A stretch of DNA of 64,000 nucleotides from an uncultured Porphyromonadaceae bacterium (GTDB taxonomy: Bacteria > Bacteroidota > Bacteroidia > Bacteroidales > Muribaculaceae): positions 23,999 through 87,998 of the forward strand of contig CAMWIH010000001.1 of assembly GCA_947174305.1 (NCBI GenBank), given 5' to 3'. The notes under the pieces were generated by a model, which was not told the DNA's origin, did not search any database, and saw only the letters and a list, made by a program, of their open reading frames with translations. The position numbers and the translations under genes are program-made. This document shows, in pieces, positions 53,712-64,000 of this stretch; the stretch's first letter is position 1; each line of letters opens with the position of its first letter.

Positions 53712-55274
53712 CTACGCATTTTTTACTTTCCAACCGTCTATGCGTCTTTTTTCGGATGAATAGTTTATGCCTATCTCTATAACGTTGCGGTTGTCGATAG
53801 TCCAGGGGAGGGCGTATTCCTTGCGTTCTATCTGTTCAAGAGCCTCTTCAGGTGTGCCGCCATATTTCAGCTCCATTATATAGACATAATCATTAGTCCT
53901 CACGAGGATGTCTATACGGCCGTCGGAAGTCCTCACTTCGGCATCCACATTCAGTCCTATAAGGGAGAAGAGGATAAGGAAAGCGTTCTGAACGTTGCGC
54001 TCCTCATCAAACTTCATGTCGTATCCTATGCCGGCAAACATCGCCTCCAGACGTTTCATAAAGGCTTCCACACGCCCCTCCTCCATCTCTTTGCGAAAAT
54101 CCACCACAAATACTTTTGATTCTATCTCTTTCACACTGGTATAATATGGTAAAAGATATTCAAAAAATCCTTTCTTTACCTCTACATTAGGAATACCTAA
54201 AGTATAGATATCAGTGTTAAGGTCATAATCCTTGATGGTAAGGTAGCCTGTCTGGTAGAAAAGTGAAACAGGGGTTATATTCTCAATATCAAGTCCTGCC
54301 AAAGCATTCTGACTGCATCTTACATTCAGAAGTTGTGTTAAGTCAGTGTCTGTTCGTTTCAGTTGTTCAGCCAGAAGGGTCGGTGTGCCTGACGAAATCC
54401 AGTAGTTCCCATATTTTCTTTTGGCAAAGACTTGAAGCAGCGAGAATGGATTGTAAATATCAGGGCATTCTTCCGAGAAATGATAGCCGTCATAGTGTCG
54501 TTTGAGTTCCAGTTGTTCTTCCTCCGCACTACGGCTGTACCTTTGCGATAGATTCTCTATACCCTCTTTAAAATTGGCGGTCAATTCCTCTTCTGTAATA
54601 CCGCATATTGCGGAGAAATCAATGTCGAAGGAGATGTCACTAATGTTGTTAAGTCCGGAAAAGACACTGAGTTTTCCGAAACGGCTCACCCCTGTCAGGA
54701 AAACGAGCCTGATATACTCGGCAGAACTCTTGAAATTGGAGTAGATGGTTGCCAGCTTATCGCGATACATCTCAAACCGTTCGCGGTTGTGGATATTATT
54801 GACCAGTGGCTTGTCATATTCATCAACCAATATCACGACCCTTTTCCCGGTTGCTTCATACATTCCCTTTATCAGGTTGGAGAACCTGACGGAATGATCC
54901 TGCTGAGTAGGCGTGATGTCATATTCCTTCTCCTTGATGGAGAGAAAATTTTCTATCAGGATATCTAAGTTATTCTCCTCCTTGTATTGCTGGTTGTTAA
55001 GGTCAAGATGCAGAACGGGGTAAGGTTTCCAGTCCCAGTCTATTGTATCAATATAGAGACCCTTGAATAGTTCGCGCTTCCCCTCGAAGAAGCATTTCAG
55101 TGTGGAGAGGAAAAGGCTTTTTCCGAAACGGCGAGGCCGGCCCAAGAAATAGTATTGAGACCCATTCACGATTTTTTCAATGTAACGGGTCTTATCTACG
55201 TAAATAAAATTGCCTTCCCGAAGCATCTCGAAGGATTGCTGTCCAATCGGATATTTCACCATTCTTTTCTCCAT
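53712..55274 (-). CDS. AAA-ATPase-like protein with C-terminal PD-(D/E)XK nuclease domain (copy 1)
   Basis: YPIGQQSF..YVDKT, Walker A RPRRFGKS, Walker B LVDEYDKP, YDGYHF, YNPFS, and GRIDILV..IMELK nuclease motif. Confidence 0.88.
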   Translation of the reverse strand: MEKRMVKYPIGQQSFEMLREGNFIYVDKTRYIEKIVNGSQYYFLGRPRRFGKSLFLSTLKCFFEGKRELFKGLYIDTIDWDWKPYPVLHLDLNNQQYKEENNLDILIENFLSIKEKEYDITPTQQDHSVRFSNLIKGMYEATGKRVVILVDEYDKPLVNNIHNRERFEMYRDKLATIYSNFKSSAEYIRLVFLTGVSRFGKLSVFSGLNNISDISFDIDFSAICGITEEELTANFKEGIENLSQRYSRSAEEEQLELKRHYDGYHFSEECPDIYNPFSLLQVFAKRKYGNYWISSGTPTLLAEQLKRTDTDLTQLLNVRCSQNALAGLDIENITPVSLFYQTGYLTIKDYDLNTDIYTLGIPNVEVKKGFFEYLLPYYTSVKEIESKVFVVDFRKEMEEGRVEAFMKRLEAMFAGIGYDMKFDEERNVQNAFLILFSLIGLNVDAEVRTSDGRIDILVRTNDYVYIMELKYGGTPEEALEQIERKEYALPWTIDNRNVIEIGINYSSEKRRIDGWKVKNA

Positions 55275-55353: not shown

Positions 55354-56925
55354 CTACTTTCTATTCCCTTTTGCTTTCCAACCGTCTATGCGTCTTTTTT
55401 CGGATGAATAGTTGATACCTATCTCTATCACGTTGCGGTTGTCGATAGCCCAAGGGAGGGCGTATTCCTTGCGTTCTATCTGTTCAAGAGCCTCTTCGGG
55501 TGTGCCGTCATATTTCAGCTCCATTATATAGATATAATCATTAGTCCTCACAAGGATGTCTATACGGCCGTCGGAAGTCCTCACTTCGGCATCAACATTC
55601 AATCCTATAAGGGAGAAGAGGATAAGGAAAGCGTTCTGAACGTTGCGCTCTTCATCAAACTTCATGTCATACCCTATGCCGGCAAACATCGACTCCAGAC
55701 GCTTCATAAAGGCTTCCACACGCCCCTCTTCCATCTCATCAAGGAAATCAAAGACAAATACCCTGACATCGTTGGTGCGAAGATTGGAGTAATAGGGCAA
55801 TAGAAATTCAAAGAAGCCCTGTTTCACTTCTATGTTTGGCAAACCTAACCGATAAAGTTGCCTTCGTGGGTCATAATCCTTTATAGTAAGGTAACCGGTC
55901 TGGTAGAAAAGGGCTTCCGGAGATATGTTGTCTATGTCAAGCCCGCGAAGTGCGTTCCTGCCGCATCTGATATTAAGAAACTTGGTGAGGTCGGTGTCGG
56001 TGCGTTTAAGCTGTTCCACCAATAATGTCGGCGTACCCGATGAAATCCAATAGTTGTCATACTGTCTCTTCCCCAAAACCTGAAGGATGGAGAAGGGATT
56101 GTAAATGTCCGGACTTTTCTCTGTGAAATGATAGCCGTCGTAATTAAGTTTAAGTTCCAGAAATTCCTCTTCCGGTGTTCTTTCATACCATTGAGCCAGA
56201 TTATCAATTCCTTCCTTGAAGTTCTCCTTGAGTTCCATTTCCGTTATCCCACAGATGGCGGCGAAATCAATATCGAAGGAGATATCGGTTATGTTGTTCA
56301 GTCCCGAAAAGACGCTGAGTTTTCCGAAACGGCTCACCCCTGTCAGGAAAACGAGCCTGATATACTCGGCAGAACTCTTGAAATTGGAGTAGATGGTTGC
56401 CAGCTTATCGCGATACATCTCAAACCGTTCGCGGTTGTGGATATTATTGACCAGTGGCTTGTCATATTCATCAACCAATATCACGACCCTTTTCCCGGTT
56501 GCTTCATACATTCCCTTTATCAGGTTGGAGAACCTGACGGAATGATCCTGCTGAGTAGGCGTGATGTCATATTCCTTCTCCTTGATGGAGAGAAAATTTT
56601 CTATCAGGATATCTAAGTTATTCTCCTCCTTGTATTGCTGGTTGTTAAGGTCAAGATGCAGAACGGGGTAAGGTTTCCAGTCCCAGTCTATTGTATCAAT
56701 ATAGAGACCCTTGAATAGTTCGCGCTTCCCCTCGAAGAAGCATTTCAGTGTGGAGAGGAAAAGGCTTTTTCCGAAACGGCGCGGACGTCCCAAGAAATAG
56801 TATTGAGACCCATTGATGATTTTTTCAATGTAACGGGTCTTATCTACGTAAATAAAGTTTCCTTCACGAAGGCTTTCAAAAGATTGTTCACCAATCGGAT
56901 ATTTCACCATTCTTTTCTTCTCCAT
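55354..56925 (-). CDS. AAA-ATPase-like protein with C-terminal PD-(D/E)XK nuclease domain (copy 2)
   Basis: Same motifs as copy 1; the start at ATG 56925 (MEKKRMVKYPIG) was chosen by comparison with copy 1. Confidence 0.88.
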   Translation of the reverse strand: MEKKRMVKYPIGEQSFESLREGNFIYVDKTRYIEKIINGSQYYFLGRPRRFGKSLFLSTLKCFFEGKRELFKGLYIDTIDWDWKPYPVLHLDLNNQQYKEENNLDILIENFLSIKEKEYDITPTQQDHSVRFSNLIKGMYEATGKRVVILVDEYDKPLVNNIHNRERFEMYRDKLATIYSNFKSSAEYIRLVFLTGVSRFGKLSVFSGLNNITDISFDIDFAAICGITEMELKENFKEGIDNLAQWYERTPEEEFLELKLNYDGYHFTEKSPDIYNPFSILQVLGKRQYDNYWISSGTPTLLVEQLKRTDTDLTKFLNIRCGRNALRGLDIDNISPEALFYQTGYLTIKDYDPRRQLYRLGLPNIEVKQGFFEFLLPYYSNLRTNDVRVFVFDFLDEMEEGRVEAFMKRLESMFAGIGYDMKFDEERNVQNAFLILFSLIGLNVDAEVRTSDGRIDILVRTNDYIYIMELKYDGTPEEALEQIERKEYALPWAIDNRNVIEIGINYSSEKRRIDGWKAKGNRK

Positions 56926-57000
56926 ATCGCATCTTTTTTGCAAAGATAACTGATTTATCTTTAAGATGCAACTAAGGGAGGTATGCGACTATGATAAAGA

Positions 57001-57027
57001 AAGTGTAACCCCGGAGGGGTTACACTT
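57001..57027 (-). terminator. Intrinsic terminator of the pyr operon
   Basis: AAGTGTAACCCC-gga-GGGGTTACACTT hairpin overlapping the pyrB stop, followed by TCTTT on the minus strand. Confidence 0.75.
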
Positions 57028-58114
57028 ATTTAGCCGGTTTAGATTCGCAATAAACGCAGCGGTAAATGCCACTGCCGTCGCTGGCCGGACGGAAGAGACG
57101 GTCAACGTTCTCCATATTGGAGATGCAGCGGCGGTTGGAGCAACGGTGCTGGTTCACGATGGTGCCTTCGGGAATCAGTTTCTGCTTGTCATCCCCTTCG
57201 GCGGCCCATTTGAGAAGGGTGAGAATCAGCGCCATGCGGACGAACTTGCCATTCTCCACCTGACGGAAATAAGCCGCTCTCGGATCAGCATCAACCTCTA
57301 CCGTGATCTCATTTACGCGGGGGAGCGGATGAAGGATGCGAAGTTCAGGCTTCGCGGTAGCCAGTTTCTCAGGTGTGAGGATAAAGGCATCCTTAACGCG
57401 GTCAAATTCATCCTCATCAAGGAAACGCTCTTTCTGCACGCGGGTCATATAGAGTATGTCGAGCTCCGGCATCACCTCCTCCATAGTCTTGACTTCGCGG
57501 TAAGGCACTCCATATTTCTCGCAGACTTCATATTTCATATAGTCGGGCAAACGGAGCTCATCGGGAGCGATTAGGATTACCTCTACTCCACTGTATCTTG
57601 CAAGAGCCTTTATGAGTGAATGCACCGTGCGTCCAAAACGGAGGTCACCGCAGAAACCGATCTTGATATTGTCGAAGCGTCCAATCTCGCGTTTGATTGT
57701 GAGCAGGTCGGTGAGGGTCTGTGTTGGATGGCTATGAGAGCCGTCGCCGGCGTTTATCACCGGTATTCCGGCATTCATGGCCGAAACAAGGGCCGCACCC
57801 TCCTCGAAGTGACGCATCGCGATGATGTCGGCAAAACAGGAGATAACCTTAGTGGTGTCGGCCACGGTCTCCCCTTTCGAAGCTGATGTGCTTTGGGCAT
57901 CGGTGAACCCAAGCACATTGCCTCCAAGCTCCATCATGGCGGCTGTGAAGCTGAGGCGCGTGCGTGTTGAAGGCTCATAAAAGAGGGTTGCAAGCTTCTT
58001 TCCCTTGCAGGCCTCGCTATACTTCTCCCTATGGTCGATAATGTCGAGAGCAAGGTTGATAACCTCGTCAAGCTCTTCACGACTCAGGTCGGTCGGGTCT
58101 ATTATATGTCGCAT
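57026..58114 (-). CDS. pyrB: Aspartate carbamoyltransferase catalytic chain fused to a PyrI-like zinc-binding domain
   Basis: FYEPSTRTRLSF, NAGDG..HPTQTLTD, TRVQKER and HPLPR; C-terminal extension CSNRRCIS...YRCVYCE. Confidence 0.93.
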   Translation of the reverse strand: MRHIIDPTDLSREELDEVINLALDIIDHREKYSEACKGKKLATLFYEPSTRTRLSFTAAMMELGGNVLGFTDAQSTSASKGETVADTTKVISCFADIIAMRHFEEGAALVSAMNAGIPVINAGDGSHSHPTQTLTDLLTIKREIGRFDNIKIGFCGDLRFGRTVHSLIKALARYSGVEVILIAPDELRLPDYMKYEVCEKYGVPYREVKTMEEVMPELDILYMTRVQKERFLDEDEFDRVKDAFILTPEKLATAKPELRILHPLPRVNEITVEVDADPRAAYFRQVENGKFVRMALILTLLKWAAEGDDKQKLIPEGTIVNQHRCSNRRCISNMENVDRLFRPASDGSGIYRCVYCESKPAK

Positions 58115-58190
58115 TGTTTTTCTGATTTAGAACAGGTCGTTGGAGGATTAGTAAAGATTCTCGAACCTTATTAATGATTCATGAAAACTC

Positions 58191-58823
58191 TTACCCGTTG
58201 ATCCATGATTCATCCGACGGGTTGTTACGGAATTTCTTGAGTCTTTCAATGTCGCTCTCCTTGATTCTCCCCTCTTCGGCTGCAACCTCCACAAGGGTGT
58301 CGAAGTTTGAGAGGGAATTATTCTTGACATTGGCCGCTGCAAGACGGTCGAGACCTTTCTGCATGCCATAAGTGAAGATGCTCACAACACCGAGCACATC
58401 TGCGCCGGCCTCACGAAGTGCTTCCACCACATCGATGCAGCTCCCACCGGTGGAGATAAGGTCCTCGATCACTACAACCTTGGTTCCCGGTTCGAGCTTT
58501 CCTTCGATACGGTTGTTGCGGCCATGATCTTTGGCGCTTCCGCGCACATATCCCATAGGCATGTCAAGAATCCAGGCGGCTATGGCTGCATGCGCAATGC
58601 CGGCTGTGCTTGTGCCCATAAGTGCTTCCGCTTCCGGATAGAGTTCTTTCACAGTCTTTGCAATCGCTTCCTCCACAATCTTGCGCTGTTTGGGAGCACT
58701 GAGGATAAGGCGATTGTCGCAATAAATAGGACTCTTTATACCGCTGGCCCAGGTGAATGGCTCGTCGGGACGAAGGAACACGGCTCCGATCTCAAGCAGT
58801 GCTTTTGCTATCTCTTTCTCCAT
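58191..58823 (-). CDS. pyrE: Orotate phosphoribosyltransferase
   Basis: FTWASGIKSPIYCDNR, YVRGSAKDHG and the PRPP motif VVIEDLISTGGS. Confidence 0.96.
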   Translation of the reverse strand: MEKEIAKALLEIGAVFLRPDEPFTWASGIKSPIYCDNRLILSAPKQRKIVEEAIAKTVKELYPEAEALMGTSTAGIAHAAIAAWILDMPMGYVRGSAKDHGRNNRIEGKLEPGTKVVVIEDLISTGGSCIDVVEALREAGADVLGVVSIFTYGMQKGLDRLAAANVKNNSLSNFDTLVEVAAEEGRIKESDIERLKKFRNNPSDESWING

Positions 58824-58906
58824 ATATGCTATATTCTTTAAATTCTATTTTATAATCTCCGAAATCTCATAATCGCGAAGCTGTCTCCGCCACGGCTGTG
58901 CCGCGT

Positions 58907-59611
58907 TTACTTACCTAAAAATCCTTTCACGCATTTGCGATATGCCTCCACCGGATCTTCAGCCGCAGTGATGGGGCGGCCAACCACGATATAGTCGGAG
59001 CCGATTTCGCGAGCGCGTTCGGGGGTGGTTATCCTCACCTGGTCATCCTTGCCAGAATCGGCAAAACGAATGCCCGGAGTCACCGTCATGAATTCATTTC
59101 CGCACGCATCTTTAACTATTCCTGCCTCAAGCGGAGAGCATACCACGCCATCAAGCCCCGCCTCCTTGGCATTTTGGGCATATTTGATGATGGTATCCCC
59201 TATCGTGGCATCAATGAGGAGCTGATTACGCATAGCCTCTTCCGATGTGCTGGTGAGCTGTGTGACGGCAATCAGCAGGGGACGTGTCCCGTCGGGACGT
59301 GTCAGCCCTTCGATGGCTGCACGCATCATCTCTATTGTGCCGGCTGCGTGAACGTTGGTCATATCCACGTCAAGCTCAGAGAGCACACGCATAGCCTTTT
59401 TAACGGTGTTGGGTATGTCGTGAAGCTTCAGGTCGAGAAAGATCTTATGTCCACGGCGCTTGATCTCCTTCACTATGTCATTGCCGGCGGCATAATATAG
59501 TTCCATGCCAATCTTGACGAAAGGCTTCTCCTCTTTGAATTTATCAAGAAATTCCAGCGTTGCTTCCTTTGATGAGAAGTCGCAGGCTATGATTACATCT
59601 TTTGCGTTCAT
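58907..59611 (-). CDS. pyrF: Orotidine-5'-phosphate decarboxylase (short type)
   Basis: [36 protein letters not shown] and VVGRPI. ATG at 59611. Confidence 0.96.
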
Positions 59612-59612
59612 A

Positions 59613-60497
59613 TTATAGATTTTCAATTATTCTTTTGCAGGCGTACGGGTCGCGGAGGTTGGCTGCGCCGACTTGAACAGCAGTGGCTCCGGCAAGCATC
59701 ATCTCCTTCACATCATCGGCAGTGGAGACACCTCCGCATCCTATTATGGGGACATCTACAGCGTGACTCACTTGCCAAACCATCCTTAAAGCCACGGGGA
59801 ATATGGCAGGTCCTGAGAAACCTCCCATCACATTGGCTATTATCGGCTTCCCGGTCTTGAGGTCGATCCGCATTCCAAGCATAGTGTTGATCAGGCAGAG
59901 GCCATCTGCACCGGCATCAACCGCCGCTTTGGCTATCGACACTATATCGGTAACGTTGGGAGTGAGCTTTACGTAGAGAGGCTTGGTTATAACCTTCTTC
60001 ACGGCCCTTACCACTTCAGCCACGCTTTCAGGCTGAGTTCCGAAACTCATGCCGCCTCCATGTACGTTAGGACAGCTAACGTTTAGCTCTATAATCTCCA
60101 CCTGCTCCTCTTTGTCTATAAGACGGCAGCATTCCACGTATTCATCTATTGCGAATCCGCTTATGTTGGCTATTATCGGCTTATGGAATACGGCTCTCAT
60201 CTTAGGAAGCTCCTCGCTGATAACTTTTTCTATACCGGGATTCTGCAGACCCACGGAATTTATCATTCCTGCCTCACATTCCGCCACTCGCGGGAGAGGG
60301 TTGCCGAAGCGCGGATTGAGTGTTGTGCCTTTGAACGATATGGATCCGAGAATATTGATATCGTAATATTCGGCCATGCCGTAGCCGAATCCGAAGCAGC
60401 CGCTGGCAGGAATCACAGGATTGTCGAGTTTAACTCCGCTGAGCGACACACTCCAGTCGCCACTCTGTTCGCGTTCCCTTATCTCTTTTATTTCCAT
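59613..60497 (-). CDS. pyrD: Dihydroorotate dehydrogenase family 1B catalytic subunit
   Basis: [32 protein letters not shown] and GGFSGPAI. Confidence 0.95.
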
Positions 60498-61243
60498 ACC
60501 AATTCATTTTTTGAGAAAACCGGACCATCCTTGCATATTCGCTTGGCAGAATCTTTTGTCTCTATGCTGCAGCACATGCAGGCTCCGAACCCGCATCCCA
60601 TCCTTGATTCAAGACTGACCTCTCCAGGAAAGTCAAGACCGGTGCAGACAGCGCGGAGCATGGGCATGGGCCCACAGGCATAGAAATAGTCGGGGCGGAA
60701 GGGGAGAGCCTTGATGGCATCAGTAACGAATCCCTTGACCCCTTCCGAACCATCTACGGTGCATATTATAGCGTCTAATCCTATCTTCTTGAAATCCTCC
60801 TTCATGGCAACATCTTTGGCAGTGTTGAAACCGAGGATAACGGTCGGGGTTATTCCGCGCGTCAGCAGCTTACGGGCAAGGTTCAATAGGGGAGCGCATC
60901 CTATCCCTCCTCCCAACAGCACCGGATGCTCGGTGGCCATATCTTCATTGAATCCGTTGCCGAGGCCGGTAAGGGTGTTGATTCTTGTGCCGGGTTTCAT
61001 CTCCGACATCGCCTTGGTGCCTGAGCCGACCACATCGTAGAGAAGCATAAGCTCTCCTTCGTTATAATCGCTAACGGATATGGGGCGACGGAGATATTTC
61101 CCTTCGATCATCAGGTTCACGAACTGACCGGCACGTGTCAGTTCCGATGTGTCACCATTGAGTCTCATTCGCCACGTCTTGTGGGTCAGTGGCTCATTGG
61201 ACGTGACGGTATAAACCGTTTCTATATTGCGATAATTCTTCAT
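60488..61243 (-). CDS. pyrK: Dihydroorotate dehydrogenase electron-transfer subunit
   Basis: GQFV, RRPISV, GLGNGF, GGGIGCAP, ACGP, and the 2Fe-2S motif MGCGFGACMCC...CKDGPVF. Confidence 0.95.
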   Translation of the reverse strand: MKNYRNIETVYTVTSNEPLTHKTWRMRLNGDTSELTRAGQFVNLMIEGKYLRRPISVSDYNEGELMLLYDVVGSGTKAMSEMKPGTRINTLTGLGNGFNEDMATEHPVLLGGGIGCAPLLNLARKLLTRGITPTVILGFNTAKDVAMKEDFKKIGLDAIICTVDGSEGVKGFVTDAIKALPFRPDYFYACGPMPMLRAVCTGLDFPGEVSLESRMGCGFGACMCCSIETKDSAKRICKDGPVFSKNELVWK

Positions 61244-61252
61244 TTCCTATTT

Positions 61253-62344
61253 TCAGATCTCTGTTTTGAGAATTTTTCCGTAAAGCTCCATCCCTTCAAA
61301 TGGGGTGGCTTTGCCCATGCTTTTGAACGTGGTGGGATCCACAATGAAACTTTCCGAGAAATCAACCGTCACTTTCCCGGGATCTCCCTCAATGCCGAAT
61401 ATCCGTCGGGGATTGGTGCTCATGATCTCTACAAGCTTATCGAGCGATATTATTCCGGGTTTTACAAGGGTGGTATAGACGGCAGCTAAAGCTGTTTCGA
61501 GCCCTACAACTCCCATTGCACTTCTTTCAAGTCCACGGCTTTTCTCTTCGGCGGAGTGGGGGGCATGGTCGGTGGCGATACATTCGATTGTGCCGTCAAC
61601 AATCCCTTCAATCAGTGCATCGCGGTCGCGTGCCGAACGGATAGGGGGATTCATCTTGAAGCGGCCATCTTCCTGTAAATCCTCATCGCAGAAAGCAAGA
61701 TAATGCGGCCCCGTCTCGCATGTGACCTCTATCCCGGCTTTGCGGGCATCGCGTATGAGAGCCACGCTTTCAGCAGTGGAAATATGGCAGATATGTAGCC
61801 TGCAACCTGTTTCGGATGCCAGTCGTATGTTGCGGTCAATCTCGCGCCATTCGCTTTCTGAGCATATTCCGCGGTGACGGTGGCGACGTGCATATTCACC
61901 ATCGTGTATATAACCTCCACGCAGGAGGTCGTTTACTTCGCAATGTGCAGCAAGAATCTTTCCGGTGGGTGCGATTCCTTTCATAGCACGCCGCATCACC
62001 TCCTCATCCTGCACACCGCTGCCGTCGTCGGAGAAGCCTGCAACGTATGGAGCAAGGGCTTCGTAATCCACAAGCTCGTTACCCAGCCTTTTCTTGGTGA
62101 TTGTGGCGTAGGGAATCACCTTTATCGCTGCATCACGCTTTATGATTTCCAGTTGCGGGAGGAGGTTTTCAATGGAATCCGGAGCGGGATTGAGGTTGGG
62201 CATCGTGCACACGGCGGTGAAGCCACCGGCAAGCGCGGCCTCTGACCCGGTTTTGATAGTTTCTTTATATGAAAAACCGGGCTCACGGAAGTGCACATGC
62301 ACATCCGCCAAGCCCGGAAGCTCTTTTATCTTATTTTCTTCCAT
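61253..62344 (-). CDS. pyrC: Dihydroorotase (N-terminally short)
   Basis: PGLADVHVHFREPG, MPNL, FSDDG, AHCE, HICHIS, KMNPP and ATDHAPH. The ATG at 62344 follows the promoter. Confidence 0.92.
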   Translation of the reverse strand: MEENKIKELPGLADVHVHFREPGFSYKETIKTGSEAALAGGFTAVCTMPNLNPAPDSIENLLPQLEIIKRDAAIKVIPYATITKKRLGNELVDYEALAPYVAGFSDDGSGVQDEEVMRRAMKGIAPTGKILAAHCEVNDLLRGGYIHDGEYARRHRHRGICSESEWREIDRNIRLASETGCRLHICHISTAESVALIRDARKAGIEVTCETGPHYLAFCDEDLQEDGRFKMNPPIRSARDRDALIEGIVDGTIECIATDHAPHSAEEKSRGLERSAMGVVGLETALAAVYTTLVKPGIISLDKLVEIMSTNPRRIFGIEGDPGKVTVDFSESFIVDPTTFKSMGKATPFEGMELYGKILKTEI

Positions 62345-62364
62345 AATCGAAATGGCGATTTTTG

Positions 62365-62372
62365 CAAAGTTA
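62365..62372 (-). promoter_or_regulatory. -7 promoter box for the pyr operon
   Basis: TAACTTTG on the minus strand, about 20 nt upstream of the pyrC ATG. Confidence 0.7.
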
Positions 62373-62538
62373 CAAAAATTAACCGACATTCCGTATATTT
62401 TTGCCCTATATTCCGATATTTTAATGTTGTAGCCGGTAAAAAATGCCTGGATTCTTTACTTGAGATGATAATAAAAATATATTTCAGATATCTTGATTTC
62501 AAACCTGTGGAAACTGTTTCATCTACTAAAACGCGTAA

Positions 62539-62565
62539 CCGGATGAAGTTATTTCCTTCATCCGG
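62539..62565. terminator. Hairpin, possible terminator of the lipoprotein gene
   Basis: CCGGATGAAG-ttatttc-CTTCATCCGG; only a weak U tract. Confidence 0.45.
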
Positions 62566-62641
62566 CCAATTGCTGTCATTGCTTTTAACTTTGCCTGTGC
62601 CCTCTTTCTGGCTCTCTCGGCAGGGAGAATGAGAAGGAACC

Positions 62642-63421
62642 TCACTTCCCAACTATTTCAGCCAGCTCCTTGGCAGTGAATGCCACGACTACATTCTTTC
62701 CTGAAGTCTTGCCAACGTAGTCATATTCGAATCCCTTGTTAAGAGATGAGAGAACCTCCGCCTGCTGACGCATTGAACGGTCTTTCATCATCTTGCGCAT
62801 ATTCTCTTTCAGTTCCTCCTTTGAGTTTCCCATTTCATCTATATCAAAAAGATCCTCGTCAACCTCACATTTATAAACGAGAGATGAACCGGTATCTTCT
62901 ATCCCCACAACATTGAGTCCTCGGTCAATCTTATAAGGGAGGCGGTGCTTCTCACTTTTGATCTGATTCTGTAGCAGAAGCTTGTTGGTTTCCTCTTCCG
63001 ACATCGGATTAGCAAGTATCTCCTTGAGTTCAGGGGCAGAGAAGTTAAGTGTGAATTCCTCCTTGCTGCCACGATTCTTATATGTGATGTTCAAGGATGC
63101 CTCTGCATCGACCATCATTTCAAGGAGTTTTTTCATATTCCCCTTCTGGAGTGCAAGTCGCATGGCCTGTCGTGCGGTTTCAGGATCTTGCTGCAAGTCC
63201 TTTACATCGGAAATCTGCTTATTAAGCGTAATCACGAATTTGACTTCACGATTGCTTTCATCGTATGACATGCTTGTCAGCTTCCCGGCCATCCCCAGAC
63301 TCATCGGGCAGTGTTTCTTCCCGGATTCAATCTGCGCTTTAAGCACTTTGTCGCTGCCTCCACATCCTGCCACAGCTACACATATAACCAGAATGAGGAG
63401 CAGATTAAGACACTTTTTCAT
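62642..63421 (-). CDS. Hypothetical lipoprotein with two internally repeated domains
   Basis: Lipobox VAVAG-C after a hydrophobic signal; the halves resemble each other (QIESGKKHCPMSL..F.APELKEI / QIKSEKHRLPYKI..FTAKELAEI). Confidence 0.75.
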   Translation of the reverse strand: MKKCLNLLLILVICVAVAGCGGSDKVLKAQIESGKKHCPMSLGMAGKLTSMSYDESNREVKFVITLNKQISDVKDLQQDPETARQAMRLALQKGNMKKLLEMMVDAEASLNITYKNRGSKEEFTLNFSAPELKEILANPMSEEETNKLLLQNQIKSEKHRLPYKIDRGLNVVGIEDTGSSLVYKCEVDEDLFDIDEMGNSKEELKENMRKMMKDRSMRQQAEVLSSLNKGFEYDYVGKTSGKNVVVAFTAKELAEIVGK

Positions 63422-63543
63422 AATTAATATGATTAATTCATTAGTAAATTTTTGATAAAGTTAATCAATTCCTAAGTAAACCGGTGAAATTTGCGACAAA
63501 CCATGGAAAAATAATGACAAAACCGGTTTTATCGTCAACTTCC

Positions 63544-64000
63544 TTATAAATTCATTATTTCATCAAGAGTCAATCCTGTGACTGAGCTTATTACTCCCGG
63601 TTCGATTCCCTGTTGTTTCATTGAGATGGCGACATTTATCAAGGTTTCCGCACGGCCTTCCGCACGGCCTTCCGCTCTGCCTTCCGCTCTGCCTTCTGCT
63701 CTACCTTCCGCACGGCCTTCGTCTCGAGCGGTGTCGAGCACGTCGTTCTGGACCATTATGGCATCGATGTGCTCGTCGTATGCCCTGCGCTCCTTTGGTG
63801 TCATGGAAAGCACGCGAAGCTTCTCCCTGACTTGTTGCAACCCGGGAGTGCGTGTGTCTTCCTTGATCTTGCCCGTCTTGAGATAGGTGAGCCATTCATC
63901 AAGCGGATTTTCAGGTATCTTGTCGTAGGCATTGACCCGGATTAGATAATATTCGGGAAACACTTCCCTCGGCAGGTGAGGAACTATGACACCCTCCTCT
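63544..64000 (-). CDS. Rpn family recombination-promoting nuclease / PD-(D/E)XK putative transposase, C-terminal part (partial)
   Basis: Frame open to the window edge; FPEYYLI, LDEWLTYLK, ERRAY, EGRA repeats and the terminal IS.VTGLT.DEI HTH-like tail typical of the family. Confidence 0.82.
   Translation of the reverse strand, partial: EEGVIVPHLPREVFPEYYLIRVNAYDKIPENPLDEWLTYLKTGKIKEDTRTPGLQQVREKLRVLSMTPKERRAYDEHIDAIMVQNDVLDTARDEGRAEGRAEGRAEGRAEGRAEGRAETLINVAISMKQQGIEPGVISSVTGLTLDEIMNL
63649..63720 (-). repeat. Six 12-bp coding repeats (EGRA)
   Basis: Six variants of GAAGGCCGTGCG / GAAGGCAGAGCG within the Rpn gene. Confidence 0.92.

Follow-up and report, generated by a model that had tools for sequence, protein, structure and literature searches.

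What remains of an allosteric enzyme when its catalytic chain carries only the zinc-binding half of the regulatory subunit? Aspartate carbamoyltransferase (ATCase) is the textbook example of an allosterically regulated enzyme, and the question is raised by the pyrB gene in a 64,000-nt stretch of DNA from an uncultured Porphyromonadaceae bacterium, a gut member of the Muribaculaceae (contig CAMWIH010000001.1; this whole stretch is referred to below as the window). The gene is a 362-aa open reading frame (ORF) on the minus strand (57026-58114) that begins with ATG and is closed by TAA (57026-57028). It is near certain that it encodes a full PyrB, a 16-residue linker and the zinc domain of PyrI (PyrI_C), and nothing further. 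The parts of this gene and the element that closes its operon lie in the window as follows:

57209-58114, minus strand: PyrB catalytic chain, residues 1-302 (carbamoyl-phosphate and aspartate domains), from Pfam, TIGR00670, motifs and the AlphaFold2 (AF2) model
57161-57208, minus strand: linker, residues 303-318 (WAAEGDDKQKLIPEGT), ending L-I-P-E, from alignment to regulatory chains in the PDB
57038-57160, minus strand: PyrI_C zinc-binding domain, residues 319-359, from PF02748, tail-only AF2 and Foldseek, and the ratio of nonsynonymous to synonymous changes (pN/pS)
57047-57142, minus strand: span of the four putative zinc ligands, codons read directly (C325 at 57140-57142, C330 at 57125-57127, C353 at 57056-57058, C356 at 57047-57049)
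57001-57027, minus strand: terminator-like hairpin (12-bp stem with 6 G-C pairs, then the T-rich TCTTTAT), which overlaps the pyrB stop codon

The original prediction, made by reading the DNA, had described PyrB joined to the zinc half of PyrI only, and domain searches bear this out. Past RMALILTLL, the translation of the ORF continues, as had been read, through a zinc motif (...KLIPEGTIVNQHRCSNRRCISNMENVDRLFRPASDGSGIYRCVYCESKPAK). Pfam assigns residues 2-141 to OTCace_N (160 bits against a cut-off of 29.9), residues 148-299 to OTCace (96 bits against 29.4) and residues 319-359 to PyrI_C (PF02748; 40.2 bits against 23.4, E 3e-10), and the NCBIfam model for aspartate carbamoyltransferase, TIGR00670, scores 342 bits against a cut-off of 237. 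The models for full PyrI, TIGR00240 and NF002063, reach only 22 and 26.5 bits, with cut-offs of 148.55 and 171, and the NCBIfam PyrI models align solely at positions 87-137 of 142 and 91-140 of 150, i.e., over the zinc half that forms the C-terminal third. The catalytic part contains the substrate motifs STRTR (49-53), HPTQ (129-132) and HPLPR (262-266); across 138 aligned relatives, the majority of these positions do not vary, and the remainder are nearly invariant.

When aligned to regulatory chains in the PDB, the tail corresponds to residues 99-143 of the E. coli regulatory chain (r-chain), from the interdomain linker onward. The L-I-P-E stretch (313-316) matches L99-P100-E101 of that linker, the prolines of which have been discussed (PMC13168310). 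C325, C330, C353 and C356 align with C109, C114, C138 and C141 in the spacing C-x4-C ... C-x2-C, and the domain most likely folds around one zinc ion held by the four cysteines. N327 and E357 preserve N111r and E142r, which in E. coli take part in a hydrogen-bond network toward the catalytic chain and for which mutants are published (10.1101/662718). At the position of K143r, whose mutation destabilizes the T state in E. coli (10.1101/662718), we find a serine, S358. The protein then stops 6 residues past the last cysteine and is ~7 residues shorter than the C-terminus of E. coli PyrI.

The catalytic part itself is of the E. coli/archaeal type (class B-like, ATC II) and scores best against ATCases that bind PyrI (305 bits to Moritella, 303 to P. 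abyssi and 287 to E. coli, with B. subtilis at 141). By alignment to the Yersinia chain, D233 and E236 are kept at the positions of D236c and E239c of E. coli. R159 and F160 (57634-57639) align with K164 and Y165 of E. coli, the partners of E239 in the T/R switch.

The full-length AF2 model is confident, with a mean predicted local distance difference test score (pLDDT) of 93.1 and a predicted template modeling score of 0.91, and it remains so in the tail and linker (pLDDT of 86-95). Its catalytic part superposes on 1ml4, 3csu and 1ekx with a root-mean-square deviation (rmsd) of 1.4-1.8 Å over ~300 residues, and VIA-align gives the full model a Z score of 38.5 to 5g1n_A. Whole-model structure searches are uninformative on the tail because the catalytic domain dominates the match list, and the tail was therefore folded alone. 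The resulting model has a pLDDT of 82 overall (84-91 in the zinc domain and ~52 in the linker, compared with ~89-92 for the linker in the full model). Its top 25 Foldseek matches are ATCase regulatory chains from four organisms (probability of 0.90-1.00, rmsd of 1.3-4.4 Å over 42-49 columns), after which come unrelated matches at a probability of 0.11 or less; the shortness of the zinc domain keeps the E-values weak (0.013 to 1). A linker that is ordered in the full model and not in the tail-only model fits the pattern expected of a tail docked on the core.

The fused gene is well conserved in Bacteroidales. A scan of species-representative genomes yielded more than 545 related stretches, and the best 80 of these, which we analyzed, all span at least residues 1-359, with 70-99% identity; their sources are Sangeribacter, other Muribaculaceae, Muribaculum, Lepagella, Tidjanibacter and Alistipes. 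The fused gene stands last in the same operon in no fewer than 80 species genomes of Rikenellaceae and Muribaculaceae, among them that of the cultured Alistipes timonensis DSM 25383. The protein is 360-375 aa long across the 80 related loci, and all four cysteines are kept in 80/80. Since the frame is the same in every one of these loci, a frameshift, read-through or assembly artifact is ruled out. Measured against the window's gene, pN/pS is ~0.18 in the catalytic part, ~0.63 in the linker, which is thus the fastest-evolving part of the protein, and ~0.37 in the zinc domain, with synonymous sites near saturation; by this measure, purifying selection acts on the zinc tail. The same three Pfam domains are found in 119 of the 120 best matches from a metagenome protein collection (77-94% identity), proteins whose database names read simply 'aspartate carbamoyltransferase'.

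The nucleotide-binding half of PyrI is missing from the genome as well as from the chain. PF01948, the N-terminal nucleotide-binding domain whose loss had been predicted, has no match in the 362-aa protein or in the window's assembly, which comprises 2.8 Mb in 225 contigs and is 88% complete. The only match to PF02748 in a genome-wide search is the fused gene (44 bits), such that the absence of pyrI, first claimed for the operon, extends to the whole assembly as far as it goes. A second ATCase-like gene was likewise not found in this assembly, and the fused gene appears to be the cell's only ATCase, with enzyme activity predicted. Because the assembly is incomplete, other carriers of the fused gene were checked for PF01948. 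It is absent from two congeners, G063 and G110, both of which are 99% complete, and from five more fused-gene genomes, including cultured A. timonensis DSM 25383. Of the family genomes with a stand-alone PyrI_C frame (~155 aa), on the other hand, 112/112 also have PF01948, adjoining it. In the genomes examined, the fused zinc-tail state and the state of PyrI with PF01948 are mutually exclusive.

The original prediction missed how common this layout is: the zinc-tailed PyrBs form a large, old family across several phyla rather than a peculiarity of one genome. Among representatives taken at one per 50% identity, many proteins of 355-402 aa align to residues 1 to ~359 of the query at just 40-49% identity. 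PyrI_C is detected at E ≤0.01 in 8/10 of the distant representatives scanned, 6 of them above the Pfam cut-off. In an alignment of 11 proteins that are 40-50% identical, C325, N327, C330, C353 and C356 do not vary, and all 11 have Glu or Asp immediately behind the last cysteine. With a profile built from distant members, the same layout also turns up in proteins whose names place them in Armatimonadota, Ruminococcaceae and Oscillospiraceae.

To place these sequences, we use an unrooted tree of catalytic-domain columns only (104 rows, IQ-TREE quick search, branch supports from the Shimodaira-Hasegawa-like approximate likelihood ratio test), which leaves out 18 long rows without a recognizable tail. 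All of the zinc-tailed rows (48/48) fall in one clade with a support of 95, together with 6 tail-less rows, and three fusions to whole PyrI (P0185, P0201 and P0204) sit in another part of the tree. Well-supported branches require at least four changes of the tail label in this unrooted tree, and therefore gains or losses have recurred. Two of the tail-less PyrBs, from Clostridium thermobutyricum (P0340, 309 aa) and C. tertium (P0385, 306 aa), nest beside the tailed P0326 with a support of 97; they could reflect loss of the tail or an ancestral state with split pyrB and pyrI.

Some members of the zinc-tailed clade are longer. In P0218 (653 aa) and P0225 (658 aa), which represent two 50%-identity clusters, PyrB and PyrI_C are followed by a C-terminal PyrR domain (NF003549; 158 bits in P0218, above the cut-off of 138, and 125 bits in P0225, below it), a different pyrimidine-nucleotide-binding module that occupies the place of PyrI's sensor. 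P0167 (544 aa), P0246 (484 aa) and P0240 (460 aa) have C-terminal extensions beyond the zinc domain without a domain assignment; that of P0167 amounts to ~185 residues and has a weak match to the winged-helix family Cdc6_C (E 0.0023). Several clade members have an insertion that splits the match to the Asp-binding domain.

In the window, the fused pyrB is the final gene of a co-directional block that also includes the following:

58191-58823, minus strand: putative pyrE (phosphoribosyltransferase, 210 aa), directly upstream of pyrB, from Pfam Pribosyltran and a position conserved in 80 loci
58907-59626, minus strand: pyrF (orotidine monophosphate decarboxylase), from Pfam OMPdecase (210 bits) and synteny
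59613-60497, minus strand: pyrD (catalytic subunit of class 1B dihydroorotate dehydrogenase), from Pfam DHO_dh (296 bits) and synteny
60488-61243, minus strand: pyrK (electron-transfer subunit of the class 1B dihydroorotate dehydrogenase), from Pfam DHODB_Fe-S_bind and NAD_binding_1 and synteny
61253-62389, minus strand: dihydroorotase-like amidohydrolase (putative pyrC) at the head of the conserved block, from Pfam Amidohydro_1 and DHOase

This upstream order, (dihydroorotase)-pyrK-pyrD-pyrF-pyrE-pyrB, is kept in the 80 related loci as far as the contigs extend. The dihydroorotase-like gene is present upstream in 44/80, which are all of the cases with sufficient contig and an alike gene, and these loci share no conserved gene of unknown function within the operon. 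An Rfam scan of 56800-64000 found neither a PyrR site nor a riboswitch, and an attenuator was likewise not recognized in or before the operon. A PyrR regulator was also considered for the window's genome and rejected, the sole match being a 21-bit generic phosphoribosyltransferase.

The operon as a whole came from outside Bacteroidales, another point that the original prediction missed. The fused proteins of Bacteroidales form a clade (support of 99) that is sister to fused proteins of Ruminococcaceae (support of 96), whereas the canonical PyrBs of two congeners, G035 and G087, lie in the other half of the tree and are just 47-49% identical to the fused PyrB. The PyrD sequences of these two genomes are just 45-50% identical to that of the window, and PyrF is not detectable in them with the window's PyrF as the query at 1e-10; in the congeners with the fused form, by comparison, the operon copies of PyrD and PyrF are 73-86% identical to the window's. 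Because PyrB, PyrD and PyrF of the canonical congeners are all divergent or undetected, it is the whole operon, and not pyrB alone, that replaced native genes. The fused gene thus belongs to a Firmicutes-type pyr operon that was horizontally acquired and displaced the native pyrB-pyrI, a whole-pathway xenologous replacement that is polymorphic within one genus. The two states can be seen side by side in this genus: G035 (loci L014 and L100) and G087 (L013 and L101) have canonical pyrB and pyrI with native pyrD and pyrF, and the window's genome (57026-62389), G063 and G110 have the whole Firmicutes-type operon. Recent transfer is unlikely, as the GC content of the operon (0.48-0.51) equals that of its surroundings.

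The genes on either side of the operon are less constant. Directly downstream are tandem paralogues, both on the minus strand, at 53712-55274 (520 aa) and 55354-56943 (529 aa), the translations of which are near-identical at both ends. Pfam predicts an AAA-ATPase domain and a PD-(D/E)XK nuclease domain in the 529-aa copy, the one included in the scan. A relative of these genes adjoins the operon in just 3/80 related loci. Upstream, two further minus-strand ORFs, at 62642-63421 (259 aa) and 63544-63963 (139 aa), have no Pfam match at E ≤0.001, and the 259-aa ORF adjoins the operon in just 1/80.

How does this layout compare with known ATCases? Prokaryotic enzymes have been sorted into classes A, B (with whole PyrI, fused or unfused) and C, and a zinc-domain-only chain is not listed (PMC4581275, PMC6022934). 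A literature search found no publication on the zinc-domain-only PyrB layout. It is conserved, widespread and apparently unstudied, and its probable mechanism comes as no surprise. With the class B holoenzymes PyrB6-PyrI6 (E. coli, Moritella profunda 2be7, Pyrococcus abyssi 1ml4 and M. jannaschii 2rgw/2yww), the fused protein shares the catalytic subfamily (45-50% identity, 283-305 bits, rmsd of 1.4-1.8 Å), the zinc-domain fold, the four cysteines and the equivalents of N111r and E142r. Unlike in class B, where the zinc domain belongs to a separate 150-aa subunit, it is here fused to the catalytic chain, and the nucleotide-binding and dimerization domain, K143r and the last ~7 residues of PyrI are absent. 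The dodecamer and its control by CTP, UTP and ATP are therefore not expected, and the absence of the domain that forms the r-r dimer and binds nucleotides argues against membership in the class B holoenzymes.

The Thermotoga maritima-type PyrB-PyrI fusion (NF009916, ~525 aa) similarly has both parts on one polypeptide with the catalytic part first, but it holds the whole of PyrI, including the allosteric domain, and it is called an allosteric enzyme in the title of Chen et al. 1998 (cited in PMC4581275). The original prediction had set our protein apart from these longer fusions, and rightly so: at 362 aa, it scores 123.8 bits against the NF009916 cut-off of 800, through its catalytic part only (residues 41-302). 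The class C trimer of Bacillus subtilis (3r7d) resembles what we expect here in being an unregulated trimer from a Firmicutes-style pyr operon. It belongs, however, to another subfamily (141 bits to 3r7d/2at2, versus 283-305 to the class B type) and class C has no zinc domain, and our protein is therefore not assigned to class C.

The nearest functional analogue is an engineered one. Markby, Zhou and Schachman (PNAS, 1991) reportedly found that the zinc domain of PyrI, isolated as a 70-residue fragment, binds stably to the E. coli catalytic trimer and alters its kinetics. Their complex is said to consist of the same components as the chain described here (r-chain residues ~84-153, without the allosteric domain), and by analogy a c3-(Zn domain)3 particle would be predicted that is stable and has altered kinetics without cooperativity. 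It differs in being man-made and non-covalent, whereas the fusion is natural, covalent, conserved across phyla and shorter at its C-terminus.

In PyrI, contact with the catalytic subunit is made by the zinc domain, and nucleotide binding falls to the other domain, which also forms the dimer joining two trimers (PMC13168310). Since the fused chain keeps only the part in contact with the catalytic subunit, a c3 trimer with zinc domains docked in cis and without PyrI-type feedback is to be expected. We favor, as moderately probable when taken as a whole, an explanation in which this sole ATCase of the cell carries its own clamp. The zinc domain would dock on the carbamoyl-phosphate domain of a catalytic chain in the same trimer, much as its counterpart in PyrI does within the holoenzyme of E. 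coli, and would stabilize the trimer and tune its kinetics. With the allosteric domain gone, CTP, UTP and ATP would no longer be sensed in the manner of PyrI, and it is reasonable to infer that the enzyme is insensitive to feedback. With the r-r dimer interface also gone, a 2c3:3r2 dodecamer is probably not formed, and a c3 trimer with three zinc knobs would take its place. Control of the pathway would then lie elsewhere, e.g., in expression of the operon. The zinc domain may have been retained because the catalytic chain of this subfamily evolved a reliance on it for stability or kinetic tuning. As for origin, the layout most plausibly arose in a pyrB-pyrI pair through an in-frame deletion of the pyrB stop codon together with the 5' two thirds of pyrI. 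The fused gene entered Bacteroidales as part of a complete pyr operon of the Firmicutes type, which took the place of the native genes.

Several points weigh against this explanation. Relatives in the same clade carry modules beyond the zinc domain, some of them candidate sensors, which may mean that the zinc domain is mainly an adaptor and not a stabilizer; the equivalents of D236c and E239c, which make T-state contacts in E. coli, are kept and leave room for some association between trimers; and the window's genome is just 88% complete. In a rival arrangement, the tails would bridge two trimers, each zinc domain being tethered to one trimer and docked on the other, or, in a variant, contacting both at once, in the way that r1 of E. 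coli contacts c1 and c4. The product would be a c6 particle with homotropic cooperativity and without nucleotide control. Bridging is in keeping with the membership of the catalytic chain in the E. coli/archaeal type, which assembles into two-trimer holoenzymes, with the conserved acidic residues of the 240s loop aligned with D236 and E239, and with a linker that is fast-evolving and, at 16 residues, long enough. Yet the allosteric-domain dimer, which is the part of PyrI that joins the two halves, is absent, serine stands at the K143r position, and the chain falls ~7 residues short of the PyrI C-terminus. Already in the monomer AF2 model, moreover, the tail and linker are placed with confidence, which favors cis docking, and we consider bridging unlikely.

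The relatives with extra modules suggest instead that the zinc domain could be a docking adaptor for a partner in trans, either an unrecognized sensor or the operon's own dihydroorotase, such that the enzyme would be regulated or channeled by a route other than PyrI. Proteins of the same clade do fill the position after the zinc domain in cis, with PyrR in P0218 and P0225 and with extensions in P0167, P0246 and P0240, and a dihydroorotase-like gene does head the conserved operon. In known holoenzymes, however, the zinc domain binds the catalytic chain and not third parties (PMC13168310), and a tail that ends 6 residues past its last cysteine offers no extra surface. Neither PyrR nor PF01948 proteins were found in the window's genome, and the operon lacks a conserved gene of unknown function that could serve as the partner; we give such a partner a small chance. 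A more general proposal, that the PyrI zinc domain is a docking adaptor to which lineages attach differing sensors (the PyrI nucleotide domain, PyrR or other ends), with the minimal form recruiting an unrecognized partner in trans or coupling two trimers, is in our judgment doubtful. That a decayed pyrI left the tail behind as a functionless remnant, or that the tail is an artifact of assembly or gene calling, is highly improbable and already contradicted. Its PyrI_C score of 44 bits does fall below the 60-80 bits of canonical PyrI from the same family, and the linker is poorly conserved, but at least 80 species genomes share its frame and length, the four cysteines are invariant at 40-50% identity, and pN/pS in the zinc domain is ~0.37 with near-saturated synonymous sites. 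The confident AF2 fold, which matches PyrI zinc domains, and the terminator-like hairpin right at the stop likewise speak against decay.

If the adaptor idea were true, it would amount to a new mode of control for a textbook allosteric enzyme. A natural and widespread zinc-domain-only form offers a clean system for the zinc domain's own role, be it in stability, kinetic tuning or assembly, and the layout shows how an allosteric enzyme may shed or swap its sensor in evolution. The contrast within one genus between canonical pyrB-pyrI and an imported operon provides a tidy case of whole-pathway replacement. Finally, this form is the ATCase of common gut genera, including Alistipes, Tidjanibacter, Sangeribacter and other Muribaculaceae, and also of Ruminococcaceae, and it thus bears on the control of pyrimidine synthesis in gut anaerobes as well as on the automatic annotation of their genes.

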